Assembly (NCBI GenBank): GCA_943328785.2
Contig: CALQBJ020000001.1
Location: forward strand, 1-57,250
DNA length: 57,250 nt
Source: Bifidobacterium breve
GTDB lineage: Bacteria > Acidobacteriota > Vicinamibacteria > Vicinamibacterales > CAVVIG01
Direction of reading: 5' to 3'
Shown in pieces: positions 21,097-45,291 of the stretch; the stretch's first letter is position 1; the number at the start of each line of letters is the position of its first letter. The translations under genes and the position numbers were made by a program. The notes beneath the pieces are model-generated. The model saw only the letters and a list, made by a program, of their open reading frames with translations. It was not told the DNA's origin and did no database searches.

Positions 21097-22553
21097 AGGT
21101 CGCGGTCGTCGTCCAGCGGTACGGGCAGGCCATCAACGGCGGCGCCGAACTGCACGCGCGGTACATTGCCGAGCACCTGGCGCGCCACGCCCAGGTGGAG
21201 GTATGGACCACCTGTGCCACCGACTACGTCACCTGGCGCAATGAGCTGAAGTCTGGCGAAGAGCGCGTGAACAACGTGCCGGTGCGCCGCTTCCCGGTGA
21301 AGCACGAGCGCGATCCGCTCACCTTCGGGCGGCTCTCCGAGAAGGTCTTCCACCGGACGCATTCGGTGGCGGACGAACTCGACTGGCTCGAGGCCGAAGG
21401 GCCGACCAGCCCTGGGCTCGTCTCGCACATCACGAAGCATGCAGGTGAGTTCGACTTCTGCATCTTCTTCAGCTATCGCTACTACCACGCCTTCCATGGG
21501 GCGCGCGCCGCGGGCACGAAGGCGATCCTCGTGCCGACGGCGGAACGCGATCCAGCGGCGGGGTTGTCGATCTTCGCGCCGATCTTCCGCGGTGTTCGGG
21601 CGCTCATGTACAACTCGCCGGAAGAGCGCGCCATGATCCAGGGCATCGCCGGCAACGCGCACGTGCCCTCGGTTGTCGTCGGCGTCGGCTCCGAGATTCC
21701 CGCGAATCCGCAACCGCAGCGCTTCCGCCAGAAGCACAACATTCGGGGCCCCTTCGCCGTCTACGTCGGGCGCATCGACGAGAACAAGGGCTGCCGCGAA
21801 CTCTTCAGCCACTTCAACGCCTACCTGCGCGACCGCGTCGGGAAGTTGACGCTGGTGCTGATCGGCACCTCGATCCTCGACATCCCGGTGCATCCGCGCA
21901 TCCGCCATCTCGGCTTCCTCGACGATGCGGACAAGTTCGACGCGATTGCGGCGTCGGAGTTGCTCATCATGCCGTCGTTCTTCGAGAGCCTGTCGATGGT
22001 GGCGCTCGAGGCGTGGGCACTGGGCAAGCCGGTGCTGGCCAACGCGAAGTGCGACGTGCTGAAAGGACAGTGCATCCGCAGTAACGCCGGGCTCTACTAC
22101 GAGAGCGCCACGGAGTTCGCCGAGACGCTGCGCGCGATCGAATTCAACAAGTGGATTGCCGGCACGCTCGGCAAGAACGGCCGCCAGTACTACCGCGATA
22201 ACTACGACTGGCCGGTGGTCGAGCGCAAGTATCTCGACATGCTGCAGCGCCTGTCGTACGGGACAGCGCCGGACGGCTTCGAGCCGCTGCCTGGATGGAT
22301 GGACCGGCGCAAGGCCACCTGTCCGCCCGCGGCCGAGGTCGTCGCCGCCGCACCGGGCGGTCCCTCGTCTGCGCCCGAGATGACGGTGCCGCGACCGATG
22401 GGTCCGGTGTCGCCGCCTCTCCCGACGCGGCCACAGGCCGCCACCGAACGTAGCCGTCCGGTGGCGCCACCGCGCTCAACACAGCCGTCCGCAGGCCGCA
22501 GGCCGCAGGGCCGGAGTCGGCGGTCTGGCCAGGGCGCCGGCGCGGGACGATGA
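21093..22553 (+). CDS. GT4-family glycosyltransferase (type A) with Pro/Arg-rich C-terminal tail
   Basis: EX7E motif 'ESLSMVALE'. N-terminus 'MKVAVVVQRYGQAINGGAELH' is paralogous to ORF 24831. 4-nt overlaps with both neighbours. Confidence 0.8.
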   Translation: MKVAVVVQRYGQAINGGAELHARYIAEHLARHAQVEVWTTCATDYVTWRNELKSGEERVNNVPVRRFPVKHERDPLTFGRLSEKVFHRTHSVADELDWLEAEGPTSPGLVSHITKHAGEFDFCIFFSYRYYHAFHGARAAGTKAILVPTAERDPAAGLSIFAPIFRGVRALMYNSPEERAMIQGIAGNAHVPSVVVGVGSEIPANPQPQRFRQKHNIRGPFAVYVGRIDENKGCRELFSHFNAYLRDRVGKLTLVLIGTSILDIPVHPRIRHLGFLDDADKFDAIAASELLIMPSFFESLSMVALEAWALGKPVLANAKCDVLKGQCIRSNAGLYYESATEFAETLRAIEFNKWIAGTLGKNGRQYYRDNYDWPVVERKYLDMLQRLSYGTAPDGFEPLPGWMDRRKATCPPAAEVVAAAPGGPSSAPEMTVPRPMGPVSPPLPTRPQAATERSRPVAPPRSTQPSAGRRPQGRSRRSGQGAGAGR

Positions 22554-23755
22554 GTACCCATCGTCCCGCCGTTCACCAGGTGCTCGCCACACTCGGCTAC
22601 GGCGACGCCATCGGGCACGAAGTGCTCGGCATCCAGCGCGTGCTCCGAGCAGCCGGGTACGAGTCGGACATCTTCGTGGAGACCGCCGACCCGAGGCTCG
22701 AGTCGCTGACGCGCGACTATCGCGAACTCGTCGACGCGAGCCATCCCGACAACCTGCTGCTGCACCACTTCTCAATCGGCTCGAAGGCATCGCGCACCGC
22801 GTACGCCCTACCCGATCGGATGGCGATCATCTACCACAACATCACGCCGCCCGAGTACTTCGCCGCCGTGCACCGCACGCTGGCGCGCCAGTGCTTCAGG
22901 GGCCGGCGTGAGATCCACGCCTACGTCGATCGCTGCGACATGGCGCTCGGCGACTCGGAGTTCAACCGGCAGGACCTGGTGTCGCTCGGCTTCCCGCGCA
23001 CCGGGGTGCTGCCTGTTGTCCCGGACCTGGCGCACCTCGACAACCCGGCCGACTGGCTGGTGCCGCAGCAGTTCGACGACGAGTGGACGAACGTCCTGTT
23101 CGTCGGCCGCGTCATCGCGAACAAGAAGATCGAGGACGTGATCCGCTGCTTCCACGCGTATCACACCAAGTTCAACCCGCGCAGCCGGCTGATCATCGCC
23201 GGCGTCTTCAGCGTGTTCGAACGCTACTTCGCCGCCCTCACGCACCTCGTGGACGAGCTCGGCCTGCAGCACGTCCACTTCGCCGGGCACGTGTCGGATG
23301 ACGAGCTGATCGCCTACTACGAGCTCGCCGACCTGTTCCTCTGCTGCAGCGAGCACGAGGGGTTCTGCGTGCCGCTCATCGAGGCGTTCTACAAGCAGAT
23401 TCCGGTGCTCGCGTACGCGGCGACCGCGGTGCCAGCAACGATGGACGGCGCCGGTATCCTGTTCGACACCAAGGAGCCGGCCTACGTTGCGGCACTGATG
23501 GACGGCATCCTCTCGAACGCCGAGCTGCAGGATGCGATCGTCGAGGAACAGCTGCACGCGGTTGCGCGGCTGCAGGCCAAGGACTTCGACCGGACGCTCC
23601 TCGGGTTCATCGAGCAGATTCTCGCGGCGCCCCGCAGCGGGGTGCCGCACGTCTCGTTCGACTTCTGGCAGCAGTTCGACATGCTGGAACAGCTCGAGGA
23701 AGTGCGCCGCTACCGTCCGTCCGCCTACTTCGAGTTGCCGGAGCAGCCGGCGTGA
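22550..23755 (+). CDS. GT4-family glycosyltransferase (type B)
   Basis: EX7E 'EGFCVPLIE' and 'FVGRVIANKKIEDVI'; paralogous to ORF 23752. Confidence 0.8.
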   Translation: MSTHRPAVHQVLATLGYGDAIGHEVLGIQRVLRAAGYESDIFVETADPRLESLTRDYRELVDASHPDNLLLHHFSIGSKASRTAYALPDRMAIIYHNITPPEYFAAVHRTLARQCFRGRREIHAYVDRCDMALGDSEFNRQDLVSLGFPRTGVLPVVPDLAHLDNPADWLVPQQFDDEWTNVLFVGRVIANKKIEDVIRCFHAYHTKFNPRSRLIIAGVFSVFERYFAALTHLVDELGLQHVHFAGHVSDDELIAYYELADLFLCCSEHEGFCVPLIEAFYKQIPVLAYAATAVPATMDGAGILFDTKEPAYVAALMDGILSNAELQDAIVEEQLHAVARLQAKDFDRTLLGFIEQILAAPRSGVPHVSFDFWQQFDMLEQLEEVRRYRPSAYFELPEQPA

Positions 23756-24834
23756 TCGTCAACCAGTGGGTGCCCGCGGCCCACAAGGGCGATGCGATCG
23801 GCGACAGCGCGCGAAAGATGCGCGCGATGCTCCGCGCGCTCGGGCACGAGTCCGAGATCTACGCGCTGACGATCGACGACGTGCTGCAGGGCGACGTCCT
23901 GCCGTTCTCCGATCCGGCGGCCCACCGCGGCGACTTGACGATCTTCCACTACGCGCTGCCGTCGCCAATGACCGAGGCGTTCGCTCGGCTGCCGCGTGGC
24001 CGCGTGATGCAGTACCACAACGTCACGCCCGCACATTACTTCGCGCCCTATTCGCCGACCCTCTTCCGCCTGGCGTCGCTGGCGCGCGCCGAACTCCAAA
24101 CGCTGGTCGGCCAGGTGGACCTCGCCATGGGCGTCTCGGAGTTCAACCGCGCCGAGCTCGAAGCCATGGGCTTCTCGCCCACCGGCGTGCTGCCGCTGGC
24201 CATCGACTTCTCGCGCGTCACGCAGAAGGTGCGGCGGCCGGCCCTCGAGAAGATCCTGTCGAACGATGACATGATCAACTTCCTGTTCGTCGGCCGCATC
24301 GCCCCGAACAAGAAGATCGAAGACCATCTCAAACTGGCCGAGCACTACAAGCGCTACGTCGACTCGTACTACCGCTTCATCTTCGTCGGCAAGTACGACG
24401 CCGTGCCGCAGTACTACGCGGCAATTCGGACGATGATGGCGCAGTACCGGCTGTTGAACGAACGCTTCGTCTTCACCGGCCCGGTGCCGGACGAGGATCT
24501 GGCGGTCTACTACCGCCACTCGGCCGTGTACATCTCCCTCAGCGAACACGAGGGGTTCTGCGCGCCGCTGCTCGAGGCAATGGCCGCCGACGTGCCGGTG
24601 CTCGCGTACTCCGCCGCGGCCGTCCCTGAGACGCTCGGCGGAGCCGGGGTGCAGTTCGCACCCAAGGACATGGAATATGCCGCGGAACTCCTCGGCATCC
24701 TGACATTCGACGATGAGCTGCGAGCGAAGGTGATCGCCGGTCAACGGCGGCGCCTCGCGGACTTCAGTGACGCCAGGCTCGAGGGCGCACTGTCCAGGCT
24801 CGTCGCCTATTCTGGTGGCCATTACCCGTCATGA
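23752..24834 (+). CDS. GT4-family glycosyltransferase (type B')
   Basis: EX7E 'EGFCAPLLE' and 'FVGRIAPNKKIEDHL'; 4-nt overlaps with both neighbours. Confidence 0.8.
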   Translation: MIVNQWVPAAHKGDAIGDSARKMRAMLRALGHESEIYALTIDDVLQGDVLPFSDPAAHRGDLTIFHYALPSPMTEAFARLPRGRVMQYHNVTPAHYFAPYSPTLFRLASLARAELQTLVGQVDLAMGVSEFNRAELEAMGFSPTGVLPLAIDFSRVTQKVRRPALEKILSNDDMINFLFVGRIAPNKKIEDHLKLAEHYKRYVDSYYRFIFVGKYDAVPQYYAAIRTMMAQYRLLNERFVFTGPVPDEDLAVYYRHSAVYISLSEHEGFCAPLLEAMAADVPVLAYSAAAVPETLGGAGVQFAPKDMEYAAELLGILTFDDELRAKVIAGQRRRLADFSDARLEGALSRLVAYSGGHYPS

Positions 24835-26144
24835 AGCTAGCCTTCGTCATCCAGCGCTACGGCGCCGAAGTTCTCGGCGGCTCCGAGCAATTATGCCGTC
24901 TCGTTGCCGAGCGGCTCGCCGGCCAGCACGAGGTCGAGGTGCTGACCACATGCGCCCGCGACTACGTCACTTGGAAGAACGAGTATCCGGAGGGGACCGA
25001 CCGGGTGAAGGGCGTCACGATCCGCCGCTTCGCCAATTCGCGCACGCGCGACATCGAGTCGTTCAACACCTACTCGGACTGGATCTTCAACAACCCGCAC
25101 ACGCGGGCCGACGAGATGGAGTGGCTCAAGCAGCAGGGCCCCTGGTGCCCGCCGCTCATCGAGTACCTGCGGCGCAACCATCAGCAGTACGACGTCCTGA
25201 TCTTCTTCACCTACCTGTACGCCACCACCGTGCAGGGGCTCGAAGTGAACCCCGGCCGCAGCATCGTCGTGCCGACGGCCCACGATGAGCCGGCCATCTA
25301 CCTCGAGATTTTCAAGGACGTCTTCACCACGCCTGGCGCCCTCTGCTATCTCACCGACAGCGAGCGCCGGTTCGTGCACCAGCAGTTCCCCGATCGGCCA
25401 CTGCTCGAGGAACTCACCGGCGTCGGCATCGACATCCCGCAGCAGCAGCCCTATCCTCGCGTGCCGGATCGGCCCGAGGACGAGTCGGCCGCGCCTGCCG
25501 AGGGTGACGCCGCCGAGGCCGACGGTAGCAGCGACGAGACGGCTGAGGAAGAGACTAGCGCGCAGGAGTTCCCGTCGCACATCCTGTCGCGCGGTTCGGT
25601 GTTCCGCCGGCGGCATCGGCTGCACGGGCCGTTCGCGCTCTACGGCGGCCGCATCGATCCAGGCAAGGGCTGCGAGGAACTGCTGAACTACTTCACCAGC
25701 TATGTCGGTGAAGGCGGCGAAGGGACGCTGGCGCTGATGGGTGCGAAGCTGATGTCGCTGCCAGAAGATCCGGCGGTCCGCTTTGCCGGCATGCTGAGCG
25801 ACATCGAACGGGTGCAGGCGCTCGAGGCCGCCACGGTCGTGGTGTGCCCGTCCCCCTACGAGAGCCTGTCGCTGCTCGCACTCGAGGCGCTGGCGGTCGG
25901 TACGCCGATCCTCGTCAACGCCCGCAGCGAGGTACTCGTGGAGCACTGCGTCCGCAGCAACGGCGGCTTGTACTACGCCGACAAGGACGAGTTCATCGAG
26001 TGCATGACGCTGCTGTTCTCCGACGCCCGACTGCGGGCCGCGCTCGGACGCAACGGCCGCGACTACGTGCGGAAGAACTACCGGTGGGACGTGGTGCTGG
26101 CCAAGTACGAGCGCCTCTTCGCCAGGGTGCGAAACGCCCGCTGA
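24831..26144 (+). CDS. GT4-family glycosyltransferase (type A') with acidic insert
   Basis: EX7E 'ESLSLLALE' and N-terminus 'MKLAFVIQRYGAEVLGGSEQL'. Insert 'PDRPEDESAAPAEGDAAEADGSSDETAEEETSAQE' is absent from paralog A. Confidence 0.8.
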   Translation: MKLAFVIQRYGAEVLGGSEQLCRLVAERLAGQHEVEVLTTCARDYVTWKNEYPEGTDRVKGVTIRRFANSRTRDIESFNTYSDWIFNNPHTRADEMEWLKQQGPWCPPLIEYLRRNHQQYDVLIFFTYLYATTVQGLEVNPGRSIVVPTAHDEPAIYLEIFKDVFTTPGALCYLTDSERRFVHQQFPDRPLLEELTGVGIDIPQQQPYPRVPDRPEDESAAPAEGDAAEADGSSDETAEEETSAQEFPSHILSRGSVFRRRHRLHGPFALYGGRIDPGKGCEELLNYFTSYVGEGGEGTLALMGAKLMSLPEDPAVRFAGMLSDIERVQALEAATVVVCPSPYESLSLLALEALAVGTPILVNARSEVLVEHCVRSNGGLYYADKDEFIECMTLLFSDARLRAALGRNGRDYVRKNYRWDVVLAKYERLFARVRNAR

Positions 26145-26147
26145 CCG

Positions 26148-27590
26148 CTAGGTGCCGCCGTCCGAGTCCGGGGTGGGGTCGGCCGGCCCCGCCTGGCGCT
26201 TGCGCCTCGGGCGGATGTCGTACCGCTTGATCATCTCGTGCAGTGTCGTCGGCTTGATGTGCAGTAGTTCCGCTGCCCGCTTTTGGACGCCGCCTGACGC
26301 TTCGAGGGTCGACTCGATGAGCCGCTTCTCGAAGTCGGTGATGACGTCCTTGAACGAGATGCCCTCGGGCGGCACCACGAACTGCGGCATGTGGAAGCTC
26401 GGTGGCCGGCGGACGTGATCCGGAATCAGCTCGACGCCGATGCGCGGACCTGACGTCAGCACCACCGCCCGCTCGACCACGTTCTCAAGTTCCCGCACGT
26501 TGCCTGGCCAGTCGTACTCCGTGAGCAGGTCGAGGGCGTCCGGCGCCACCTCGAGATCCGCCTTGCGGTTCTCGTCGCCGTACTTGTGCAGGAAGTGCTG
26601 GACGAGCAGCGGAATGTCGTCCTTGCGGGCGCGCAGCGGCGGCAACGTGATCGTCACCACGTGCAGCCGGTAGAAGAGATCCTCGCGGAAGCGCCCGTCT
26701 TCCATCGTCTGCCGCAGGTCGGTGTTGGTCGCGGCAATCACCCGCACGTCGGCGCTCACCGACTCGACGTCGCCCAGTCGCGTGAACTCGCGGTCCTGGA
26801 TGATGCGCAGCAGCTTTGCCTGCGTGTCGAGCGGCACACTCGCGATCTCGTCGAAGAACAGCGTCCCCCGATCGGCCAGGTCGAAGAGCCCCTTCTTCGG
26901 GTAGACCGCACCGGCAAACGCATCGCGCACATGGCCGAACAGCGTCGACTCGAGCAGTTCGGGCGAGACACTGCCGGAGTTCACGGCCACGAACGGTTGT
27001 TCGGAGCGCGATGAGTTCGAGTGGATGGCACGAGCGACCAGTTCCTTGCCGGTGCCGCTCTCGCCCTGGATGAGGATGCTCGACCGGCTCGGTGCGGCCT
27101 GGATGATCAGGTCGAACACCTGCCGCATCTTCGGGCTGCGCCCGATGATGTTGCCGAACTTGTGGTACCGCTCCTGGATGTTCTGACGCAGGTTGCGGTT
27201 CTCGTGCACCAACCGCCGGCGCTCCATCGCGTTCCGGATGACGACGAGCACCTCTTCGTTCTTGAACGGCTTGGTGATGTAGTCGAACGCCCCGCTCTTC
27301 ATCGCCGAGATCGCGCTTTCCACAGAGGCATAGGCGGTGATGATGATCACGGCGAGGTCTTCATCAAAGCGGCGCAGTTCGTCGAGCGTCTCGATGCCGT
27401 TGATGCCGGGCATCATGATGTCGACCACGGCGGCATCGAACGGCAGCGCCCGCGCCAGTTCCAGCCCTTCTTCGCCCGACGAAGCGAGCTTCACGTCGTA
27501 ACCCTCGCGCGTCAGGAGGGTCTCGAGGATCTCGCGCATGATCTCCTCATCGTCGACGACGAGGATCGTGCCTTTGCGGATGGTAGCCAT
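26148..27590 (-). CDS. Sigma-54-dependent response regulator (NtrC family)
   Basis: Start at MATIRKGTILVVDDEE (27590). Receiver domain, AAA+ 'GESGTGKE', 'ESTLFGH' and a C-terminal Fis-type HTH 'AAELLHIKPTTLHEMIKRY'. Confidence 0.9.
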   Translation of the reverse strand: MATIRKGTILVVDDEEIMREILETLLTREGYDVKLASSGEEGLELARALPFDAAVVDIMMPGINGIETLDELRRFDEDLAVIIITAYASVESAISAMKSGAFDYITKPFKNEEVLVVIRNAMERRRLVHENRNLRQNIQERYHKFGNIIGRSPKMRQVFDLIIQAAPSRSSILIQGESGTGKELVARAIHSNSSRSEQPFVAVNSGSVSPELLESTLFGHVRDAFAGAVYPKKGLFDLADRGTLFFDEIASVPLDTQAKLLRIIQDREFTRLGDVESVSADVRVIAATNTDLRQTMEDGRFREDLFYRLHVVTITLPPLRARKDDIPLLVQHFLHKYGDENRKADLEVAPDALDLLTEYDWPGNVRELENVVERAVVLTSGPRIGVELIPDHVRRPPSFHMPQFVVPPEGISFKDVITDFEKRLIESTLEASGGVQKRAAELLHIKPTTLHEMIKRYDIRPRRKRQAGPADPTPDSDGGT

Positions 27591-27604
27591 GGGGCGGTTG
27601 ACGA

Positions 27605-30568
27605 CTACTGCCTCGCGCTGCTCCGAAGCGCGGGCTGGACAGCGACAGGCAACGACATGGTGAAGCGCGTCCCCTGGCCGACGGTGCTGTCGCACCGGAT
27701 GCTGCCGTCGTGCTCGCGCACGATGCCGTACGAAATGGACAGGCCGAGCCCGGTGCCGCGGCCGATCGCCTTGGTCGTGAAGAACGGGTCGTAGATGCGC
27801 GCCAGTTGTTCGGGCGGAATGCCGCTGCCGGTGTCCGCAATTTCCACGATGACGCCCGAGCCGTCGGTGCGGGACGACACGGTCAGCCAGCCGCCGCGCG
27901 GCATGGCATCGCGGGCATTGAGGAACAGGTTGAGGAACACCTGCTGCAACTGGTGCTCGATGCCGAGCACGAGCAGCGGTTCCTGCGCCAGCTCACGACG
28001 GACCTTGATGCGCCCCACCTCGAACTGGTGCTCGACCAAGGAGTAGACATCGTTGATGACCGCGTTCAGGTCGACCGGAGCGCGCTCACCGCCCGGCGTG
28101 CCCGGGCGCGACAACGTCAGCAGGCCGTTCACGATCTTCGCGGCGCGGAACGTCTGGCGTTCGATCTTCTCGAGGATCTGGGTGCGCGGGTCGGCCGGGT
28201 CGGCGTTCTCGAGCAGCATCTGCGTGTAGCTGGAGATGCCGGTGAGCGGGGTGTTCACCTCGTGGGCCACGCCCGCGGCGAGCAGGCCGATCGACGCCAT
28301 CTTCTCGGAAATCTGCAGTTGCTCCTCGAGGCGGACCCGGTCGGTGACATTCTCGAGCAGCAGGATGGTGCCGTCCATCGTGTCGCCGCCGCCATGCGTC
28401 TGCAGCGGCACGACTGTCGCGTTCACCAGCAGGCGGGGGGCGACGAGTTCATCCTCGTCGTCTGACGCGCGCGTCTGCAGCGGCACCTTGAACAGCGTGG
28501 CGCCGAGCGGGTTCTCGTCGCGCGCTGCGCGCAACGCCCCGACGAAGCGCTCGTCGAACACATCAGATAGCTGCGTGCCGATGGCGTCGGCCCTGGTGAC
28601 GCCGTAGAACGACTCCAGGGCGTGGTTCCAGCGGACGATGCGCTCGTCCTCGTCGAAGACGACCAGGCCATCATCGAGCGATTCGAGGATGTTCTCGTTG
28701 AACTCGCGCATGCGGCCGAGTTCCTGCGCTTTGAGCTGCAGTTGGCGGTACAGGCGGCCGTTCTCGATGGCCGTCGCCACCTGCCCGGCAACGGCCGTGA
28801 GCAGCGCCAGGTCCTCGCTGTTGAACGGTTCGTCCGACTCCTTGCGTCCGAGCGCGAGCACGGCGATGGCCGCCCCTTCAAATACGCAGGGCACGAAGTA
28901 GTAGATGCCGTGGTCGCGCCAGAACTCAACCTCTTCGGCGTCGAATCGTGCGGCGGAGATCGGATCGTCGAGGGCGATCGTGTGATTGGTGTCGAGGCGT
29001 ACGACGAACGACGACGACCGTGTCAGGCGCGGCACCGACTGCTGGAAGCCGAAGTCGCCGATCGAGTGGAAGTCGCCAAGGCGCTCGTCGGCCAGCATCA
29101 GCGACATCTGGTCGACGACCAGCGTTTCGACGACGCGTGTGACGAGGCGCTGGCTGAGGCGAACGACATCGAGGTCGGTGTTGAGGTCGCGTGCGAAGCC
29201 GACCAGCGCGCGGCGGTAGTCGTAGCGGTCGCGGTAGAACACACGGTCGAGGGCGTTCTGCACCGCGTCCTTCACCGGCTGCGCCAGCAGCACGACCACC
29301 ATCGTCGCCAGCGCGGCCACCACCCAGTTGTGCGGGTCGGTGTCGTCCGAGAAGATGAAGCCAACCGTCTTGCGCATCGCCAGATAGAGCAGGCCGCTGG
29401 CGCCGAGGAACGCGGTATACGCGAGTCCGCGCTTGATGATGACCTCGACGTCGCGCAGCCGGTAGCGGACGATGGCGGAGGCGAACGCGAGCGGTACCAG
29501 CCCGAGCGGTACAGCGGTGAGTTGCAGGGCGAGCGGCGGGTTCGCGCCGAACGCCCACGGCAGCGCGTAGAACAGCGCGTAGGGGCCGACGCCCAGCACC
29601 GAGCCCCAGGCAATCCAGCGCAACTGACGACGGCCCGTCAGCGAGGTGATCTCGCCGAACCCCTTCGCCAGCACCACGATCGCGGCGACCGCGCAGACCA
29701 GCAGGTAGACCGGCTCGAAGCGGTCCAGCACGTCGAGCGTGCGCGACAGTATCTCGCCATTCGACGTCCCACGCGCGACGGCAATGATGCGGCTGGCGCC
29801 GAGGATCAGGGCCGGCGCATACATCGCCACCAGCAGCGCGTAGGGGCGCGACGGCACGCTGCGGCGGCGCGGACGTTCCGGAAAGACGAGCGTGAAGTGC
29901 AGTAGCAGCGGCGGCAGCAGCGCCATCGCCACGGCGTCACCCCAGTAGAACGTCCAGTCGAGCCGATCGAAGGGACCGTTGAACGAGAAGGTGAACGCGC
30001 CGAAGAAGGCGACACAGAGCCAGAAGAAGTGGAGCGTGGCCTGGTCGCGCGGGCGGCGCAGGCGGACCGACGCGCCGACGATCAGCGTGAAGAGACCAAC
30101 GGCGGCGAGAACGAAGTACATCGACGCGGGCCGCGCGGATTCCGCCAGCGACACCTCGAACGCCTCGCGGCTGCCGATGCGCAGGATGGTGTAGGAGAGG
30201 GTCGTGCCGGCGATGCCGCTGTGCTGATACTCGAGGACCTCGGCGGGCGTCTCGACCGCCACACCGTTCACGGCCAGCAGCACATCGCCAGAGTGCACGC
30301 CAGAGACGGCAGCGGGCGAGTCGGGCGCCACCTCCACGGCGGTCACCCCCTGGGCGCGCGCGGCCCAGAGCACGCCGTCTTCCACTTCGTGCCACTTCGC
30401 GCGCATCGCCACGTTCGCGATCCCCAGCGCGACCAGCACCGCCACCACCGCCACGATGAACACGGGACGGGCCCACGTGCGCCACTGCGACGCGTGTGTC
30501 TCCTGACGGAACGCACCAGCCGAGCGCGGTGGCTCGGAATTGGGCATCAGGGTGGACAGATGGGGCAT
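27605..30568 (-). CDS. Sensor histidine kinase: PDZ + multi-TM + GAF + PAS + HisKA/HATPase
   Basis: PDZ-like '[24 protein letters not shown]', about 7 hydrophobic segments, GAF ('[32 protein letters not shown]'), PAS ('[23 protein letters not shown]'), H-box '[11 protein letters not shown]', and 'DTGSGI' and 'GTGLGLSI'. Confidence 0.88.
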
Positions 30569-34421: not shown

Positions 34422-37036
<2,615 letters not shown>

Positions 37037-37884: not shown

Positions 37885-37908
37885 CGCGCGGACGCGCACG
37901 TCCGCGCG
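37885..37908 (+). terminator. Perfect GC-rich hairpin CGCGCGGACG-CGCA-CGTCCGCGCG after gpmA (no U-tract)
   Basis: 10-bp stem and 4-nt loop read directly. It sits between gpmA and the channel gene. Confidence 0.35.
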
Positions 37909-37939: not shown

Positions 37940-39664
37940 ATGAGGTCATACATTGTCTATGTGCTGGGGATCGTTGCGCTCGTCATTCTGACGAGCGCAA
38001 CCGGTTTCTACGCGGCCGAAATCGGCACCAACCAGAACCTCGACAGCTACGGCGACGCCCTCTGGTGGGCGATCGTCACTGTCACCACCGTCGGCTACGG
38101 CGACATCTTCCCTGTCACCGTTGCCGGCCGCCTGGTGGGCGCCTTGCTGATGTTCGCCGGCATCGGTGCGCTTGGCGTGTTCACCGCCTCCATCGCCGCC
38201 TACCTCATCAAGTTCGATCGCCTCGACGCCCTCCGGGTCAGGGGCATGCACGGCCACGTGGTGATCTGCGGCCTCGGCTCGACCGGTGCGCTGCTGGCCC
38301 AGGCGTTCCAGCGCGACGGCTACACGGTGCTGGCCATCGAGAAAGCCGAGGACAACTCACGCATCGGCGCAGCCCGCGAGGCGGGTGCCGTGGTGCTGAT
38401 AGGGGATGCCGCGCGGACCGAGGTATTGCGCCGGGCGCGGGTCGACCGTGCCGCGCACATCGTGATCGTCACCGGCGCCGATGCGACCAACGTGGAGATT
38501 GCCGCCGCCGCGCGAGCCCTGGTGCTCGACTCGACGGCCAGCGTGTCGTGCTCGGCGCAGATCGAAGACCCGGAACTCTGGTACGCCCTGCGTAGTTGGG
38601 ACGTCGGCACGCAGGACCGCGTACGGCTCGCGTTCTTCAATGTGGCCGAACTCGGCGCCCGCGCCCTGCTCGCCCGCTACTCCCCGTTCGCGGGAGGGAC
38701 CGACGCGCCCCGCACTCCGCCTCGCGTCCTCATCGTCGGTTCCGGTGCGCTCGCACAGCACCTGATCGGGCACATGGTGCGGCAGTGGCAGGACGTGGAC
38801 GGCGATGCCAAGCCGCCGTTGCCGATCGCCCTCGTCGATGCCGACGTCGACCGCGTTAGGGAGGATCTGTATCACCGGAACCCCGAACTGCGCACGCTCG
38901 CCGCGATCTCGGCGCATGCGATGGACCTGCGGTCGACGACCTTCCAGCGCGGTGCGTTCCTGTTCGACGATGCGGGCCACTGCGCGGTGACCCACGCTTA
39001 CGTCTGCGTCGACGAGGAAGGGCTGGCAATCTCCACCGCGCTGCTGCTGCTGAATCACCTGCGGCAGTACGGTGTGCACGTGATGGTGCGGACGAACCGC
39101 GCAGCGGGACTGGCAGCCCTACTGCGCGCCGTCGGCAATGAGGGGGCACGAGGGGCGTCGCACCTGCACGTCTTCAGCCTGCTCGAGCAGGCCTGCAGCC
39201 CGGAGTTCGTACTGCGCGGCACCAACGAGGTGCTGGCGCGAGCGCTGCACCAGGACTATCTGGCACAGGCGTCCAGAAGCCAGAGCCCATCGGCCGTTCC
39301 GTGGGATGAGTTGGCGCTCGATCTCAAGGAATCGAATCGACGGCAGGCGGACCACATCGCGACGAAGCTCGAAGTGGTGCACTGCCACATCGTGCCGCTC
39401 ACCGCGCTCGAAGGCGATGCGTTCACCTTTGCTCCGGCCGAGGTGGAGCAACTGGCCGAGATGGAGCACGAGCGCTGGGTGGCCGAACGCCGAGCGCAGG
39501 GCTGGAAGCGCGGACCTCGCGACCCGGCACTGAAGACCAATCCCAGCCTTGTTTCATGGGCCGACCTCGATGAATCGGCTCGCGACATCAACAGGAGTTC
39601 CGTGCGCCGACTGCCGTTCTTCCTGAATCGCGCGGGCTTCACCGCACACCGTTACAAAGCATGA
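37940..39664 (+). CDS. 2-TM K+ channel fused to two RCK/TrkA-N domains and a C-terminal RyR domain
   Basis: Selectivity filter 'TVGYGD' (38087-38104) between two hydrophobic helices. Rossmann motifs 'VVICGLGSTG' and 'VLIVGSGALA'. RyR-like 'LAEMEHERWVAERRAQGWKRGPRDPALKTNPSLVSWADLDESARDINRSSVRRLPFFL'. Confidence 0.85.
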   Translation: MRSYIVYVLGIVALVILTSATGFYAAEIGTNQNLDSYGDALWWAIVTVTTVGYGDIFPVTVAGRLVGALLMFAGIGALGVFTASIAAYLIKFDRLDALRVRGMHGHVVICGLGSTGALLAQAFQRDGYTVLAIEKAEDNSRIGAAREAGAVVLIGDAARTEVLRRARVDRAAHIVIVTGADATNVEIAAAARALVLDSTASVSCSAQIEDPELWYALRSWDVGTQDRVRLAFFNVAELGARALLARYSPFAGGTDAPRTPPRVLIVGSGALAQHLIGHMVRQWQDVDGDAKPPLPIALVDADVDRVREDLYHRNPELRTLAAISAHAMDLRSTTFQRGAFLFDDAGHCAVTHAYVCVDEEGLAISTALLLLNHLRQYGVHVMVRTNRAAGLAALLRAVGNEGARGASHLHVFSLLEQACSPEFVLRGTNEVLARALHQDYLAQASRSQSPSAVPWDELALDLKESNRRQADHIATKLEVVHCHIVPLTALEGDAFTFAPAEVEQLAEMEHERWVAERRAQGWKRGPRDPALKTNPSLVSWADLDESARDINRSSVRRLPFFLNRAGFTAHRYKA

Positions 39665-41559
39665 ACAGCGAACATTCGTCGTCGCCACACACCGCGCACG
39701 GCCACCGGCGTCCCAAGCGAGTCCGGCACCCAGGCACCGGCCAGATGCCTGGGCCGCTACCGCTGATCGTCGGCGTCACCGGCCATCGTGATCTGCGCCC
39801 CGAGGACACGCACGCGCTCGAAGGACTGGTGCGACGCCTCATCGAAGACGTGAAGCACGCGCATCCGCACACGCCGCTGCTGCTGCTGTCGCCACTCGCG
39901 GAAGGCAGCGACCGCCTGGTCGCGCGCGTCGCCCTCGAACTCGGTGTCCGCCTCGTGGTGCCACTGCCATTGCCGCTCGACCTTTACGAGCAGGACTTCG
40001 CCAGCGAGGCGTCGCTGGCCGAGTTCCGCCGCCTGCTCGGCCGCGCGGAAAGTTCGTACGTGCTGCCGCTGATGCGCGGCAACACCGACCAGGGAATCAG
40101 GCAGTACGGCGATCAGCGGAACCGTCAGTACGCCCAGGTCGGTGCGCTCATCGCCCGGCAGAGCCAGGTGTTCCTCGCCCTCTGGGACGGCGCGAGCGAT
40201 GCGGGCCACGACAAGGTGGGCGGCACGGCGGAAGTGGTCCGGTTCAGGCTCGAGGGCGTGCCCCCGAGCTACGAGCCGACGTCGGCCAGCCCGCTCAGCT
40301 ATTCCAGCAGCGGACGGGTGTATCACCTCGTGACGCCGCGCATCGGCCAGCCGGTGCCGCCGAAGGCGCTGGCGTCGGAGCTGCTCCTGCCCACCCGTCA
40401 GACCGCGGCGTCGTTCGATGAACGCGAGGGGTGGATGGACCGGTTCAACGAGGACGCGCTGCACTTCGACGCGCAGTTGGCACCGGCTCGCGTCACCAGC
40501 ACGTCGTACCTGCTGAACGTCAAGGAGCACGAGGTCGATGCGGCGGCGCGCTCGCTGCCCGCCTCGGCGCAGATGACCATGGAGCGCTACGCCGTCGCGG
40601 ACACCCTGGCGCTGCACTTCGCCACCTACACCAGGGCGGCGTCGCGGAAGCTGTTCCTGTGGGTGTTCGTGTCGGCGCTGTTCTTCAACCTGTTCCACTC
40701 GCTGCCGCACCCGCATATCTCAGAACATCCTTCGCTCGGTGAACGGCTGATCGCGGTTCCATGGCTCCTCCTGCTCTTCCTCGCCTCGTCCATCGTCGCC
40801 AGCTACTGGATCCATCGCGAGGCGACCGAGCAGGACTACCAGAACAAGCACCAGGATTACCGGGCGCTGGCCGAGGCGCTGCGCATCCAGTTCTTCTGGC
40901 AGGTGGCCGGCGTGCAGGGCGACGTCGCGGATCACTACCTGCGCAAGCAGCGCGGGGCGCTGGAGTGGATTCGCAACGCGCTCCGGGCCTGGGATACCGA
41001 GTCGTCGGCCAACGAGGCGCACGAAGCGGTGGAGGGCCTCCTGCCAGAGCGGCTGGACTACGTCGCCCGGAACTGGGTCTTCGAGCAGCGCAACTACTTC
41101 GCGTCGAAGGCGCGCCGTGAGCAGGCGACGCTCGAGGACGAAGAGAAGAAGATCGAGTGGCTGGTGCGGATCAGCGTGGCGATGGCGATGCTGCTCGCCG
41201 TGGTGCTGACGGTGCCACTCCTCGTGCCCATTCACGCACTCGAAGCGGTGAAGCACTGGGTCGAGGAACCGCTGACGCACGGGATCATCATGGTCGTTAT
41301 CGTGACCCTGGCGGTCGTCGCCGGCCTGCGTCACGGCTACAACCAGCAGATGGCCCACTCAGAGCATGCGAAACAGTTCGGGCGCATGAGCGAGCTGTTC
41401 GACGCGGCGCAGACGCACCTGTCGGCGCAACTGGACGCCGGGAAGCTCGAGGATGGGGCGGCGCTGCTACGCGAACTGGGTCAGGAAGCGCTGGAGGAGA
41501 ACGGCGACTGGGTACTGCTGCACCGCGAGCGTCCGCTCGAAGTGCCGCACTCGGGATGA
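39661..41559 (+). CDS. SLOG/LOG-like Rossmannoid N-domain fused to a 4-TM (SLATT-like) membrane region
   Basis: ATGA overlap with the channel stop. 'LIVGVTGHRD', 'SPLAEGSDRLVA' and 'LWDG...KVGGTAEVV' (compare LOG PGGxGTxxE). Four hydrophobic helices (LFLWVFVSALFF, LIAVPWLLLLFLASSIV, WLVRISVAMAMLLAVVLTV, GIIMVVIVTLAVVAGL). The domain call is inference. Confidence 0.6.
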   Translation: MNSEHSSSPHTAHGHRRPKRVRHPGTGQMPGPLPLIVGVTGHRDLRPEDTHALEGLVRRLIEDVKHAHPHTPLLLLSPLAEGSDRLVARVALELGVRLVVPLPLPLDLYEQDFASEASLAEFRRLLGRAESSYVLPLMRGNTDQGIRQYGDQRNRQYAQVGALIARQSQVFLALWDGASDAGHDKVGGTAEVVRFRLEGVPPSYEPTSASPLSYSSSGRVYHLVTPRIGQPVPPKALASELLLPTRQTAASFDEREGWMDRFNEDALHFDAQLAPARVTSTSYLLNVKEHEVDAAARSLPASAQMTMERYAVADTLALHFATYTRAASRKLFLWVFVSALFFNLFHSLPHPHISEHPSLGERLIAVPWLLLLFLASSIVASYWIHREATEQDYQNKHQDYRALAEALRIQFFWQVAGVQGDVADHYLRKQRGALEWIRNALRAWDTESSANEAHEAVEGLLPERLDYVARNWVFEQRNYFASKARREQATLEDEEKKIEWLVRISVAMAMLLAVVLTVPLLVPIHALEAVKHWVEEPLTHGIIMVVIVTLAVVAGLRHGYNQQMAHSEHAKQFGRMSELFDAAQTHLSAQLDAGKLEDGAALLRELGQEALEENGDWVLLHRERPLEVPHSG

Positions 41560-41592: not shown

Positions 41593-42987
41593 CTAGGCCA
41601 ACGGGGTCTGCGCCGCGGCCAGCCACGCCGCCGTCACTTCCGACGCCGTGGCAAACCGGCTGTTCGCGTCGGCCAGGATGCAGCGCATGATCATCGCCGC
41701 CGCCTCGGTCCCGAGGTCGGGACGCTCCGTCGCCACGTCCGGCGGCTTGGTCATGAGCATGCGGCCAAGCAGTTGCGGGAACGACTCCGCCGGGTAGGGC
41801 GGCCGTCCCGTGGCCATGTAGTACATCAGTGCACCGATCGTGAAGACGTCGGCACGCTGGTCGGCCGGATTCCCCATCAGCAGTTCCGGCGCAACGTACG
41901 ACAACTCGTGCGGCGCCGCCTGCCCCCGCAAGGTCGCCTCGTTCATTGTCGACAGCAGATCCTGCATGCCTCCGATGCCGGCGCTCGAGATGGCGAGGTG
42001 CTCTTTCTTGCCCGGCTCCCGCACCACACGAATGATTTCCGGATGCAGCCCCGAGATGAAGCCGCCGTGCACGTGCACCGCCTCGGTCGCCTCGCTCAGT
42101 TCGCGCACGAACTGCGTCAGCTTCGGGATGGCGAGGCCGCCGTCCAGGCGAACGAGTTCGCCGAGGCTCACGCCTGCCAGCAGGTCCGTCACCACGTACA
42201 TCATGTCCGTCGTCTCGCCGAAATCGCGGACGTGGATGATGTTCGGGTGCATCACCTGCAGGGCGCGCGCCTCACGCAGGAACCTGGCACGAATGGCCTC
42301 CTTGTTGTCCTTGTCGGTCGGCCGGTAGACGCGCACCGCGACCGGACTGCCGAGCATTCGGTGTTCGCCGGCATAGACGACGCTGCCGAAGCGACCGATC
42401 GCGACCACCTTCGTGAGGTCGTAGTTGCCCACCACCAGCGGCGATTCCTTGGACGGTTCGAGCGAGGCCGGCGGAGGCGGCGGCGCGGCGGCCGCGGCTG
42501 GCGAGGGAGCGAGGGGCGCTGGCGCGTCGACGCCGTCTGGGATCAGGTCGCCCTCGATGCCCGGCCGCTTCAGGTGCGCGTTGACGCCCTGGACGAGACG
42601 CTCGAGGTGCTGGTCGATCGGCTGGAGCGTCGCGTCGAACCAGTGCTGCGAGCTGATGAAGTACTCCATCGTCCGGGTCGGCATCACGTTCTCGATGCGG
42701 ACGGGCATGAGCGACAGCCCCTTGTGGACGGCGCGCTCGACCTCGCGCTGCACCTGGACCGACTTGTTGGAGGCTTCGCTGAAGACCAGCAGCATGACGC
42801 GCGAGCCTTCGATGGCGTCGATGATCGACTCGGCCCACGGCACGCCAGGCACGATGTCGCGGGGGGCGATCCAGCACGGAATGCCGCGCTGCTCGAGACC
42901 CGCGCAGATCGCGTTCGAGACAACCGCGTCTTTCGACGCATAACTGATGAAGACCACGTGCGCCATGACGAAAGCGCTGTCGATCAT
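41593..42987 (-). CDS. TIR domain - pseudokinase fusion protein
   Basis: TIR: 'VVFISYASKD...PCWIAPRDIVPG..WAESIIDAIEGSRVMLLVFSEASNKSVQVQREVE'. Kinase-like fold with degenerate motifs: 'VAVRVY' (K to R), 'ISGLHPEII' in place of HRDLKPEN, 'ISSAG' in place of DFG, with 'YVAPE' retained. Confidence 0.8.
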   Translation of the reverse strand: MIDSAFVMAHVVFISYASKDAVVSNAICAGLEQRGIPCWIAPRDIVPGVPWAESIIDAIEGSRVMLLVFSEASNKSVQVQREVERAVHKGLSLMPVRIENVMPTRTMEYFISSQHWFDATLQPIDQHLERLVQGVNAHLKRPGIEGDLIPDGVDAPAPLAPSPAAAAAPPPPPASLEPSKESPLVVGNYDLTKVVAIGRFGSVVYAGEHRMLGSPVAVRVYRPTDKDNKEAIRARFLREARALQVMHPNIIHVRDFGETTDMMYVVTDLLAGVSLGELVRLDGGLAIPKLTQFVRELSEATEAVHVHGGFISGLHPEIIRVVREPGKKEHLAISSAGIGGMQDLLSTMNEATLRGQAAPHELSYVAPELLMGNPADQRADVFTIGALMYYMATGRPPYPAESFPQLLGRMLMTKPPDVATERPDLGTEAAAMIMRCILADANSRFATASEVTAAWLAAAQTPLA

Positions 42988-43065: not shown

Positions 43066-45291
43066 TTAGTCGACGAAAGTGAGACTTTCGCCGAATTCGG
43101 TCGCGTTCAGGGCGTCCTTGACCGCCTGGTTCGCTCCGATTACCTGAACGTCCTCATCGGTTCGCAGCTTCTGCTTGCCGAAGATGAGGGCGCGAATCGC
43201 ACCCGGGGTCAGCGTCTTCAGTTCCTTGACGCGGATGATGAGCGTCTCGGGCTGGGCGGCGATGACCTCCTGAAGCTTGGCCTGCAGCGCCTGAACCGCC
43301 ATGTGGTCGGCGTCGCCCGCCAGGGTCAGCGTCGCGACCCCCTTGTCCACTGTGGCGTGTGCGCTGAAGTGTGACAGCCCCTCGGTCGGCGCGATACGCA
43401 CGACGATCTTCACCTGGTCATCAGCCTGCGGGATGGTGACCGTGAGGTTCGCGGCGTCGAAGTCGCTGTATTCCTTGCCGTCGACCGTGACCGACTCGAT
43501 CTTGATGCTGCCCTTCGGCAGCATGTCCGGCGCGACGCGCAGGATGTTGCCCTTGAACGCGCCCGGCTTCGGCTTGAAGTGCAGATCGAGCGGCTGCTTG
43601 GTGATGAGCAGGTTCGTGTAGACCGCCGCGAGGTAGCACAGCTCGAACGAGTGGTAGCCGCTCATCGAGTGGCTGCCCTTGTTGCGTTCGGTGCCGAGCA
43701 GGAACGGCATGCCGTTGGCGAGGACGTTGAAGTAGACGGCCCCCGAATCGTGGTCGAGGAAGAACGCGCTGTAGAACGCCGACGACTCACGCGCCTGCTT
43801 CAGGTACTCCGGCTTCTTCAGCGAACCGTGGAGGATCAGGTACGCCAGGATGCCCTGTTCCTGCTGCCACCACGCCTTGCGGTCGTGGAAGGCGAAGCGG
43901 TGGATCGACTGCCCTTCCGGCAGGGCGCGTTCCACCACGTCGTACCAGCCGCCACGCTGCGGGTCGCCGCCGTGCTTCGGCATGAGGCCGGCGATCTTCT
44001 CGGCGAGCGCCACGTAGCTGTCGTCCTGCTTCGCATTCACCATGCGCATCAGGTTCCAGGCGATCTTGAGGTTGTGTCCGACGACCCCGCGGTTCTGTTG
44101 CCAGCCCCACGTCCGGTCGGCGCTCCAATCCTCGTGGAACTTCTCCTGGACGAACGCGCTGTTCTCGTAGTCCGGGAAGCGCGTGGCGATGGTGGTCGCC
44201 GTGTCGATGAGCATCTCGAGGTGCTCGGGTTCGTTCGTCGCCAGCGCCAGGTTGATCAGGTACGCCGGGGCGTGGTCACCGACCGAATTCCAGTTCTTCT
44301 TCCCGCGGTTGCGACCGAGCGACTCGGCCTTCGGGTCGAAGGTGACCGGGTCAATGTGCGAGAAGTAGCCGCCACCCTCGTAGTCGCGGTAGTAGCGGTT
44401 GAACATGTTCAGGGTGCGGTCGATGTCCTTGCGGATCTTCGGGTCGCCCGTGATGCGGTAGGTCTGCGTCGGGCCGGCCAGCGCGTAGATCTGTTCATAC
44501 GCCGGGATCGCATCCCAGTCGTCACCGAACTCCGACGAGAGCAGCTTGCGCTCGCGGACGGGGGCGCTGGAGGAGCGGCGCATGCCGGGCACGTCGGCCA
44601 TGTCCGAGTTCAGGATCTTCTTGCCCTTCGCCTCGGCGAAGTCGATGGCGTGGTACCAGTAGCAGGTGTCCTCGACCGTGTCGACCGAGCAGAAGTGTTC
44701 GCGCAGGTAGTCGCTGCCCTTTTCGGCCGATTCGAGGAAGCGCTCGTCACCGGTGAGGAGGTAGGCCGAGGCGAAGCCGAAGATCAGGCGCGAGATCGTG
44801 TCGGTCTCCTGGCGGGTCGAATCGATCTTGCGGCCGTACAGGTCGAGCGACGTGCGGTAGTTGCGGTAGTCGACCGGGCCGTCGCCGAACTGGGCGCGGA
44901 AGTAGAAATTGCCCAGTTCCTGAATCTGGCGCACCCAATAGTCGGGCCGTTCGAACACGAACTCCGTCGGGCCGCGGCCGACGAACACGAGGTGCTCCGC
45001 CTCGAGCGCCATCGGCACGTCCGGGTAGAACACGCCGTAGGAGTACAGAAAGCGGCCGACCTGCAGCATGTCGCGCATCTGCCCGGTGCAGTCGATGTAC
45101 GACTCGCCGAGATTGCGCGCCAACTCGCCGTAGCATGAGCCCGAGAAGCGAATCTGGAATTCCCGGCCATCCGACGTGGCGACGCGGAATCCGTTACGGT
45201 CGGCGTCGACGCCGGTGACGTATCCGGCCACGGTGTCCGAGAATGCGAAGCCTAGTCCTGTCGTATTCGAAACCGAGTTCTTGACGTCCAT
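43066..45291 (-). CDS. AGE-superfamily (alpha/alpha)6 epimerase/isomerase-like enzyme with C-terminal STAS domain
   Basis: 'GHNLKIAWNL' and 'WWQQEQGILAYL' are AGE-like. The last ~110 aa ('ATLTLAGDADHMAVQALQAKL...LIIRVKELKTLTPGAIRALIF...VQVIGANQAVKDAL') are STAS-like. Confidence 0.72.
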   Translation of the reverse strand: MDVKNSVSNTTGLGFAFSDTVAGYVTGVDADRNGFRVATSDGREFQIRFSGSCYGELARNLGESYIDCTGQMRDMLQVGRFLYSYGVFYPDVPMALEAEHLVFVGRGPTEFVFERPDYWVRQIQELGNFYFRAQFGDGPVDYRNYRTSLDLYGRKIDSTRQETDTISRLIFGFASAYLLTGDERFLESAEKGSDYLREHFCSVDTVEDTCYWYHAIDFAEAKGKKILNSDMADVPGMRRSSSAPVRERKLLSSEFGDDWDAIPAYEQIYALAGPTQTYRITGDPKIRKDIDRTLNMFNRYYRDYEGGGYFSHIDPVTFDPKAESLGRNRGKKNWNSVGDHAPAYLINLALATNEPEHLEMLIDTATTIATRFPDYENSAFVQEKFHEDWSADRTWGWQQNRGVVGHNLKIAWNLMRMVNAKQDDSYVALAEKIAGLMPKHGGDPQRGGWYDVVERALPEGQSIHRFAFHDRKAWWQQEQGILAYLILHGSLKKPEYLKQARESSAFYSAFFLDHDSGAVYFNVLANGMPFLLGTERNKGSHSMSGYHSFELCYLAAVYTNLLITKQPLDLHFKPKPGAFKGNILRVAPDMLPKGSIKIESVTVDGKEYSDFDAANLTVTIPQADDQVKIVVRIAPTEGLSHFSAHATVDKGVATLTLAGDADHMAVQALQAKLQEVIAAQPETLIIRVKELKTLTPGAIRALIFGKQKLRTDEDVQVIGANQAVKDALNATEFGESLTFVD

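Follow-up and report, generated by a model that had tools for sequence, protein, structure and literature searches.

A putative Thoeris-like cassette with a GsuK-type potassium channel that carries a tandem ryanodine-receptor R12 domain

The 57,250 nucleotides analysed here (the window; contig CALQBJ020000001.1 of assembly GCA_943328785.2, positions 1 to 57,250 of the forward strand, GTDB order Vicinamibacterales) contain a cassette of three genes. The first encodes a potassium channel with two transmembrane (TM) helices, two RCK domains and a C-terminal tandem Repeat12 (R12) domain of the ryanodine receptor (RyR) type, the second a SLOG protein with a SLATT-type membrane module, and the third, which converges on the other two, a TIR domain fused to a kinase-like domain (Table 1). 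The TGA of the channel gene overlaps the ATG of its partner (ATGA at 39661-39664), and the two genes are predicted to be a translationally coupled pair with the channel first. At third codon positions the channel gene has a GC fraction (GC3) of 0.83, similar to the adjoining genes. The genome (3.83 Mb, 96.8% complete) holds a single match to PF02026 (RyR) and a single match to PF13676 (TIR_2), and both lie in the cassette, about 3 kb apart.

Table 1. Coordinates of the cassette genes and of the domains they encode.
Feature	Position in window	Strand	Details
Channel gene	37940..39664	+	574 amino acids (aa), ATG start; predicted 2-TM potassium pore, RCK1, RCK2 and tandem RyR R12, from open reading frame, Pfam, AlphaFold2 (AF2) model and fold matches
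Pore module, residues 1-92	37940..38215	+	TM1 5-23, pore helix 37-48, TVGYGD 50-55 (bases 38087-38104), TM2 61-91
RCK1 (KTN Rossmann), residues 104-250	38249..38689	+	GLGSTG 111-116; E134 closing beta-2; TrkA_N match
RCK2 (second Rossmann lobe), residues 260-425	38717..39214	+	GSGALA 267-272; D300; beta-alpha-beta units in AF2 model
R12 repeat 1, residues 426-490	39215..39409	+	H437, Y440, S449, N466-R467; helices 428-443 and 460-479, strand 482-486
R12 repeat 2, residues 497-572	39428..39655	+	H510, W513, R527, N534, N551-R552; Pfam RyR
SLOG + 4-TM SLATT-type membrane protein	39661..41559	+	632 aa; family hidden Markov model (HMM) matches, fold search, hydropathy
TIR fused to kinase-like domain	41593..42987	-	TIR at residues 9-131 (bases 42595-42963); TIR_2 E 1.1e-22, Pkinase E 1.5e-20

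The channel, its R12 domain and the two partner proteins

A sequence-only reading of the window had described the channel as one polypeptide combining a KcsA-like pore, two RCK domains and an RyR domain. Its open reading frame was confirmed, and Pfam, a profile search of the PDB, the AF2 model and fold matches agree on this order of domains. Pfam recognises Ion_trans_2 (PF07885) at residues 12-90 (E 3.3e-17; its 62.6 bits exceed the cut-off of 22.5) and TrkA_N at residues 107-199 (E 3.9e-18, above the curated cut-off). Hydropathy gives two TM segments, 5-23 and 65-83, which bracket the filter TVGYGD as had been claimed, and the AF2 model (a monomer built from 47 homologues, with a mean pLDDT of 83.9 and a pTM of 0.73) predicts helices at 2-27, 37-48 and 61-91 in the pore region. 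The two Rossmann-type RCK domains recognised earlier by their glycine motifs are borne out by fold matches to GsuK, TrkA and KtrA, the second one having no Pfam match and being visible in the AF2 model and the fold alignments. The top Foldseek match of the model is GsuK (4gx0, E 2.7e-12, about 520 columns), followed by TrkA, MthK and Slo. In VIA-align comparisons residues 103-428 align with KtrA (Z 21.5), GsuK (Z 21.1) and TrkA (Z 20.3), residues 1-99 with the pores of KcsA, NaK and Kv channels (Z 11.6-13.0, 81-99 residues aligned; KcsA 4lbe with Z 11.9 over 99 residues), and RCK1 (residues 105-249) with a KTN domain that contains NAD+ (1lss, Z 16.6). Both RCK domains bear putative dinucleotide-binding signatures, i.e. 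GxGxxG with E134 in RCK1 and GxGxxA with D300 in RCK2; in the 47-sequence alignment G111 and G267 are invariant and D300 is at least 90% conserved.

GsuK from Geobacter sulfurreducens (4gx0, 4gx1, 4gx2, 4gx5) likewise unites a 2-TM potassium pore and two tandem RCK domains in one chain, and 354 of its residues can be aligned with the channel, but sequence identity is 12-17%. The GsuK entries were solved with NAD and ADP in the RCK domains. Unlike the channel, GsuK has no R12 domain, and linkage to TIR or SLOG-SLATT genes is not known for it. Because Pfam matches, fold matches of the AF2 model and profile matches of the C-terminus concur, the channel can be described as a predicted GsuK-like protein (pore, RCK1, RCK2) extended by a tandem R12 domain.

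At the C-terminus, which the sequence-only reading had assigned to the RyR family, Pfam RyR matches residues 502-567 (E 3.6e-12; the score of 46.8 bits exceeds the cut-off of 27.4, and a scan of the whole genome gave 43.6 bits). A weaker, RyR-like half-repeat had been proposed upstream of it; a repeat is indeed present there, but it is a full first repeat of a tandem R12 rather than a half. The helix-helix-strand unit occurs twice in the AF2 model (residues 428-486 and 499-571), and the chimeric Bt-hRyR R12 structure 6uhs aligns with the model over 138 of 180 residues (VIA-align Z 11.7, root-mean-square deviation 3.4). The motifs LHQDY (436-440) and MEHERW (508-513) mark the first and the second repeat, respectively. 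A profile of the C-terminal 375 residues finds the R12 crystal structures of RyR1-3 in the PDB at E 1e-19 to 1e-25 (best 9.6e-26) and the Bacteroides thetaiotaomicron protein 3nrt at E 2.3e-12, and in the profile alignment the 'N-P' and 'N-R' residues of repeat 2 are those of RyR3 repeat 2.

The function of bacterial RyR domains had been called essentially unknown, a statement that is outdated, as phage R12 proteins are reported to bind or cleave cyclic ADP-ribose (cADPR) and its 2'cADPR and 3'cADPR isomers (PMC13232231, PMC13251945). The phage protein RyDEP is an R12-fold glycosidase for 2'cADPR and 3'cADPR in which H75, W78, H100 and D117 are the key residues (Lopez Rivera et al., PMC13232231); six of eight homologues tested bind the signals, and binding of 2'cADPR and 3'cADPR by phage R12 proteins occurs at nanomolar affinity (PMC13232231). 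RyR Tad binds 3'cADPR with a dissociation constant of 43 nM, and 2'cADPR and cADPR below 1 uM (PMC13251945). These two 2026 preprints present R12 solely as a viral counter-defence tool. RyDEP (DyoEdafos gp78) and RyR Tad (Pectobacterium phage CB1 gp68) share the R12 fold and pocket with the channel; they are small soluble homodimers that serve counter-defence, whereas in the host channel a single chain ends in two repeats. The 'putative ryanodine receptor' of B. thetaiotaomicron (3nrt, 6uag) is a bacterial R12 repeat as well, but it is soluble, has one repeat in about 100 aa and no channel fused to it, and retains His and Asp. Animal RyRs resemble the channel in that a tandem-repeat R12 is mounted on a tetrameric cation channel; however, they are six-TM Ca2+ release channels of about 5000 residues, whereas the pore found here is an unrelated 2-TM potassium pore in a chain of 574 residues, and R12 follows the RCK ring at the C-terminus, unlike in animal RyRs.

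Profile comparison by hhalign of RyDEP (DyoEdafos gene 78 as query) with the C-terminal profile of the channel gave a probability of 92.4 (E 5e-7). A tblastn search of the channel R12 region against 50,697 phage records had found no match at E 1e-3, so the relation required such a comparison of profiles. In repeat 2, H75, W78 and H100 of RyDEP align with H510, W513 and N534, and a gapless extension of the alignment places N551 at D117; the basic residue R527, judged by the spacing of residues given in the papers, corresponds to R93 of RyDEP and K147 of RyR Tad. The equivalents in repeat 1, whose second half is spanned by the hhalign alignment, are H437, Y440, S449 and N466. This pocket is conserved: among 192 R12 domains of the family, repeat 1 has His at H437 in 182, Tyr at Y440 in 171 and Asn at N466 in 164 (at S449 most relatives have Asn), and repeat 2 has the His in 186 and the Trp in 166. 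At the position of the RyDEP catalytic acid 127 of the 192 domains have Asp and 43 have Asn; the potassium-filter clade, to which the channel belongs, has Asn, and N551 is invariant in 15 sequences of this clade. The catalytic dyad of His and Asp seen in RyDEP (H75, D117) is absent from the channel, with Asn at both N551 and N466. Because Asn stands where RyDEP has its catalytic Asp, we expect the channel R12 to bind the signal rather than to cleave it.

The partner protein by itself matches no Pfam, NCBIfam or PADLOC model, and its assignment rests on 42 family members and a fold search of its AF2 model (pLDDT 89.2). DUF4231, a member of the SLATT clan, was recognised in 35 of the 42, YAcAr SLOG in 24 and SLATT_3 in 8. 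The N-terminal domain has its best fold match in YpsA (2nx2, E 6.9e-5), followed by ShosA, DprA and LOG, and hydropathy places TM segments at residues 331-349, 363-381, 504-522 and 538-556. In the third protein neither the catalytic Lys nor the Asp residues of HRD and DFG are present in the kinase-like domain (motifs judged by eye), and the TIR domain has Glu at position 81, which we take to be the catalytic Glu position; this column is kept in all 34 aligned TIR domains of related neighbourhoods. Against PADLOC and NCBIfam the TIR protein matches ThcB4 only weakly (E 0.0041). This TIR-pseudokinase is presumably both the sensor and the synthase of the signal.

Linkage and distribution of the module

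The full channel architecture was found in about 55 protein clusters, and 83 related loci were collected (two from genomes, one from genome G036 and 80 from metagenomes; 84 with the window) and scanned in six frames with local HMMs. The potassium-filter clade comprises 14 of these loci, including the window, and at least six lineages below 80% identity, one of them an Abditibacteriaceae metagenome-assembled genome; its sources are Acidobacteriota-like, Abditibacteriaceae and Devosiaceae, at 42-75% identity. A SLOG-SLATT gene lies directly 3' of the channel, starting 21-178 bases downstream, in all 12 loci of the clade that can be evaluated; in the other two the contig stops no more than 306 bases from the channel gene. 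Of ten loci that can be evaluated for TIR, nine have such a gene, four further contigs ending too early. The tie of the channel to a SLOG-like and a TIR protein, which the sequence-only reading had noticed in the window, thus recurs across the clade: the partner family contains YAcAr SLOG members, the partner protein has a YpsA-like fold, and the neighbours are conserved, as the survey of phyletic distribution and neighbourhoods proposed at the time now documents. The TIR linkage is real and conserved across distant lineages.

The association extends beyond this clade. Throughout the RCK2+R12 family (84 loci) TIR was found in 30 loci, TIR or a DUF4062-like domain in 40 and SLOG in 23. When counting is restricted to the 31 loci that have 8 kb or more of flank, these figures become 17, 23 and 12, respectively. 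The locally built DUF4062-like HMM extends 40 residues past the domain, so the weaker DUF4062-like matches, in L098 and L124, are uncertain. By comparison, none of 78 control loci (1.02 Mb) around potassium channels without R12 matches the TIR, DUF4062-like or SLOG HMMs. These controls are 78 of the 80 loci obtained from a genome contig scan dominated by TVGYGD; the remaining two are true relatives. Pfam searches of 104 neighbouring proteins recovered TIR, DUF4062-NACHT-WD40, TPR, caspase, NUDIX and RelA_SpoT proteins and extra stand-alone R12 genes. The module also occurs in parts: TIR followed by SLOG-SLATT without a channel in three genomes of the order (G067, G114, G188), and TIR beside an R12 channel-like protein without SLOG-SLATT in G036/L083, L098, L099 and L124.

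Several of these neighbourhoods hold further genes. Directly upstream of the potassium-filter R12 channel of one locus (L095:6829-7227, plus strand) lies a gene for a 132-aa single-repeat R12 protein (Pfam RyR E 1.2e-35). As in the B. thetaiotaomicron type, the four RyDEP residues (His, Trp, His, Asp) are all retained, and this host-encoded protein may buffer the signal or switch it off; a small R12 match also lies upstream in L092, and none was found in the window. In the two most distant potassium-clade loci a gene for a Tll0287-like sensor with a HAMP domain abuts the channel start (L001:7111-7983, with a 4-base overlap, and L002:678-1568); the window is without such a gene. Among loci with a degenerate filter (L096, L107, L117, L143), DUF4062-NACHT (STAND), WD40 and small NUDIX genes recur beside the R12 channel-like gene, and L096 additionally has a RelA_SpoT-TPR gene. 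A 1076-aa protein in L101 (3627-6857), encoded beside R12 channel-like and NUDIX genes, has a RelA_SpoT nucleotidyltransferase region at its N-terminus and R12 at its C-terminus, and because of this fusion we suggest that R12 also pairs with signal makers other than TIR.

The RCK2+R12 profile finds 2533 representatives at E <= 1e-30 among 1.84 billion proteins. Among the best 150 of these, 119 have at least 540 aa, and a T[VI]GYGD filter occurs in only three of the 119; most of the other long relatives among these best 150 have hydrophobic, TM-like N-terminal segments, often two, and no canonical filter. Because the canonical filter is this rare, the channel in the window appears to belong to a small potassium-selective branch within a large unnamed family. 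One further protein, P0071 (517 aa), combines a TTVGYGD pore and a middle region that is not TrkA_N with a tandem R12 that has His and Asp at the positions of RyDEP H100 and D117; its cluster has 18 member sequences and may be another channel-R12 lineage.

Within the order the channel was found in two of 201 sampled genomes and in none of three congeners, and the partner protein was detected in six of the 201. The three congeners retain the run cyclase-glgC-eno-gpm at 79-91% identity (glgC-eno-gpm 84-91%), synteny ends right after gpm, and none of the downstream genes of the window was found within 14 kb past gpm. That the cassette was simply inserted into a conserved locus was considered and is not demonstrated by this comparison, as the congeners lose synteny for all genes past gpm and not only for the three. 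Metagenome relatives preserve the whole arrangement, with divergence faster in the three module genes than in the flanks: identity in L087 is 70-74% for the module against 83-89% for six of seven flanking genes (the exception, a TonB-dependent receptor gene, has 70%), and in L090 94-95% against 93-99.6%. The three-gene cassette is sporadically distributed and fast-evolving. In a closer relative, L084, the flanks and the other module genes are 98-99.6% identical to the window and the channel only 94%; the differences are concentrated in RCK2 (residues ~250-425, 88% identity) and point to local diversification or recombination.

A Thoeris-like interpretation and its alternatives

Like Thoeris systems, the cassette combines an adjoining TIR gene with effectors that contain putative nucleotide-signal domains, here SLOG and R12. 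Type VII, which consists of a TIR protein and the SLATT effector ThsH and uses canonical cADPR as signal, protects against phage, and type X, in which the TIR protein ThsB acts with the 'ion channel' effector ThsK (Bacillus sp. BH32), was validated as anti-phage too (Yirmiya et al., bioRxiv 10.64898/2025.12.03.692087). By its main-text description, on which our comparison is based, type X consists of two genes, to which the window adds the SLOG-SLATT gene and the pseudokinase on TIR; this main text gives no domain architecture for ThsK and does not use 'RyR', its sole mention of 'ryanodine' concerning animal channels. With respect to types VII, I and III, the partner protein unites a SLOG sensor, as in the SLOG-sensing effectors of types I and III, with a SLATT-clan module as in type VII; no PADLOC or NCBIfam Thoeris model matches it, and the window has the R12 potassium channel as an extra effector. 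Our literature search found no paper describing a host-encoded R12 effector, although the figures and the supplement of the type X preprint, which were outside its reach, may bear on the identity of ThsK.

Thus, we propose that the cassette is Thoeris-like and has two effectors, one of them a GsuK-type potassium channel that is gated through R12 by an NAD-derived nucleotide made by TIR, a full chain of events to which we give about even chances. In this scheme the TIR protein would be triggered via its dead-kinase sensor domain and would convert NAD+ to an ADP-ribose-derived signal of the cADPR family. The signal might bind the two His/aromatic pockets of R12 below the RCK ring and open the potassium pore, and the same or a second signal might bind the SLOG domain of the partner and activate its SLATT membrane module. 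Potassium and the membrane potential would be lost, and the infected cell would be arrested or killed. The channel itself would be a predicted 2-TM, tetramer-type and potassium-selective channel of the GsuK kind that acquired an R12 domain, an element of the same evenly balanced explanation. That the module belongs to the TIR-linked conflict systems we hold with greater confidence than the complete chain. The replacement of the catalytic Asp of RyDEP by Asn argues for sensing rather than degradation of the signal.

Somewhat below even chances stands the more specific idea that R12 in a potassium channel of the host serves as the direct receptor of a cADPR-family signal made by TIR, i.e. that bacteria possess an axis leading from a cADPR-type nucleotide via an RyR domain, a sensor homologous to that of the animal RyR, to channel opening. 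This axis would run in a Thoeris-like system with two membrane effectors and, as a joint assumption made equally tentatively, in a family of thousands whose other members have a pore that is degenerate and possibly non-selective. Two long-standing open questions of animal calcium signalling are whether ryanodine receptors are a direct target of cADPR and which role Repeat12 plays there. With the channel and its large family the R12 pocket appears on the side of the host, where it is joined to a small and tractable potassium channel and wired to a TIR synthase, and a bacterial channel of 574 residues whose ligand would come from the adjoining gene might allow a direct test of R12-mediated gating. 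If the proposal is correct, a potassium-selective channel and a new sensor domain would join the effector repertoire of Thoeris, a single TIR protein would serve two different membrane effectors, and the phage R12 sponges would be explained as mimics of a host receptor.

Several observations speak against this proposal. Three of six residues important in phage R12 binders are altered in the channel, with N534 in place of His, N551 in place of Asp and I550 in place of Lys, so the ligand may not be 2'cADPR or 3'cADPR and may instead be ATP, ADP or ADP-ribose, ligands reported for the R12 domain of animals. Since both RCK domains bear putative dinucleotide-binding signatures, the RCK ring could, as in GsuK, respond to NAD(H) or ADP and gate the pore with no part played by R12. 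The signal of the type X TIR protein is none of the known TIR products (bioRxiv 10.64898/2025.12.03.692087). The cassette is bordered by housekeeping genes (eno and gpm upstream, glycogen genes downstream), protein family scans of the window recognised no defence or mobile-element genes near it, and no PADLOC or NCBIfam model, in libraries that predate Thoeris types V-XI, matches the channel or the SLOG-SLATT protein. In one potassium-clade locus (L002) neither the 1.6 kb upstream nor the 8 kb downstream of the channel contain a TIR gene. Finally, the related loci are partly redundant and akin to each other, and their counts are therefore not independent.

Alternatively, R12 might act as a brake that sequesters or degrades the TIR signal and thereby sets a threshold or resets the system, or its ligand might close the channel, leaving SLOG-SLATT as the sole killing effector. 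The R12 proteins with reported biochemistry are sponges or a glycosidase only (PMC13232231, PMC13251945), two thirds of the family R12 domains (the 127 above) keep Asp at the catalytic-acid position together with the His, TIR and SLOG-SLATT form a stand-alone pair in three genomes, and in some potassium-clade loci, e.g. L095, an extra small R12 gene retains all four RyDEP residues. We nevertheless regard a brake as unlikely: the clade of the window has Asn in both repeats, N466 agreeing with the family majority and N551 being invariant in the clade, it would be hard to explain why an intact and conserved potassium pore with a double RCK ring should carry a mere sponge, and R12 channel-like proteins accompanied by TIR do exist without SLOG-SLATT. 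The RCK ring could also be the sensor itself, the channel responding to depletion of NAD+ by the NADase activity of TIR at sites for NAD+, NADH or ADP, as in GsuK, with R12 as an accessory ATP/ADP sensor. Such a role would suit the best structural matches, GsuK with NAD and ADP and KTN domains with NAD+ or NADH, the signature residues of RCK1 (GxGxxG, E134) and RCK2 (GxGxxA, D300) and the description of the animal R12 domain as an ATP and drug site (PMC13251945). However, it leaves unexplained why R12 is common to the whole TIR-linked family and why its His/Trp pocket is nearly invariant, and ordinary RCK channels have TIR or SLOG neighbours in none of the 78 control loci; we consider it improbable.

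The same wiring might serve a purpose other than phage defence, with a TIR-made nucleotide controlling potassium flux or the membrane state in stress, dormancy, development or kin conflict. The chromosomal locus is surrounded by metabolic genes, one lineage (L084, L087, L090) has inherited it stably, a Tll0287-like sensor gene with HAMP abuts the channel in L001 and L002, and the neighbours in the wider family include STAND/NACHT-WD40, caspase, TPR, NUDIX and RelA_SpoT genes. Such genes are typical of conflict and cell-death systems in complex bacteria. The patchy distribution and the divergence of the module beyond that of its flanks argue against this purpose, and so does the anti-phage activity of all experimentally tested systems of TIR with SLATT or TIR with an ion channel that are named in the papers cited; we think it quite unlikely. 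An ordinary housekeeping channel that adjoins SLOG-SLATT and TIR genes by coincidence is strongly disfavoured and would come as a great surprise. Relatives are annotated as 'voltage-gated potassium channel Kch' or 'NAD-binding protein' and the flanks are housekeeping genes, but the channel occurs in just two of the 201 genomes of the order, SLOG-SLATT adjoins it in every evaluable locus across phyla, the sole TIR and the sole RyR match of the genome fall in one cassette, and such neighbours are lacking in all control loci.

Flanks of the cassette and other genes of the window

The upstream neighbours of the cassette are glgC, eno and a His_Phos_1 (gpm-like) gene, the downstream ones an epimerase-like/STAS gene and an isoamylase gene. 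Between positions 36900 and 43200 a promoter scan found none, and the number of terminators was not above that in shuffled sequences. Within the 61 bp that separate the gpm-like gene from the start of the channel lies a perfect GC-rich inverted repeat with 9-bp arms and a 4-base loop, without a T tail (37886-37907). A strong hairpin-plus-T terminator on the minus strand (43041-43001) separates the epimerase-like/STAS gene from the TIR gene. The former (43066-45291, minus strand) encodes a product of 741 aa that joins a GlcNAc-2-epimerase-like fold to a STAS domain. No counterpart was found in the three congeners, synteny with the cassette is kept in L085, L087 and L090 (85-99% identity), and the gene may be part of the variable region.

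Two further groups of genes are unconnected to the channel. A run of glycosyltransferase group 1 genes occupies 21093-26144 on the plus strand, two of which weakly match 'GT4-conflict', and beside it, at 26148-30568 on the minus strand, a PDZ-GAF-PAS histidine kinase is encoded together with a sigma-54 response regulator.

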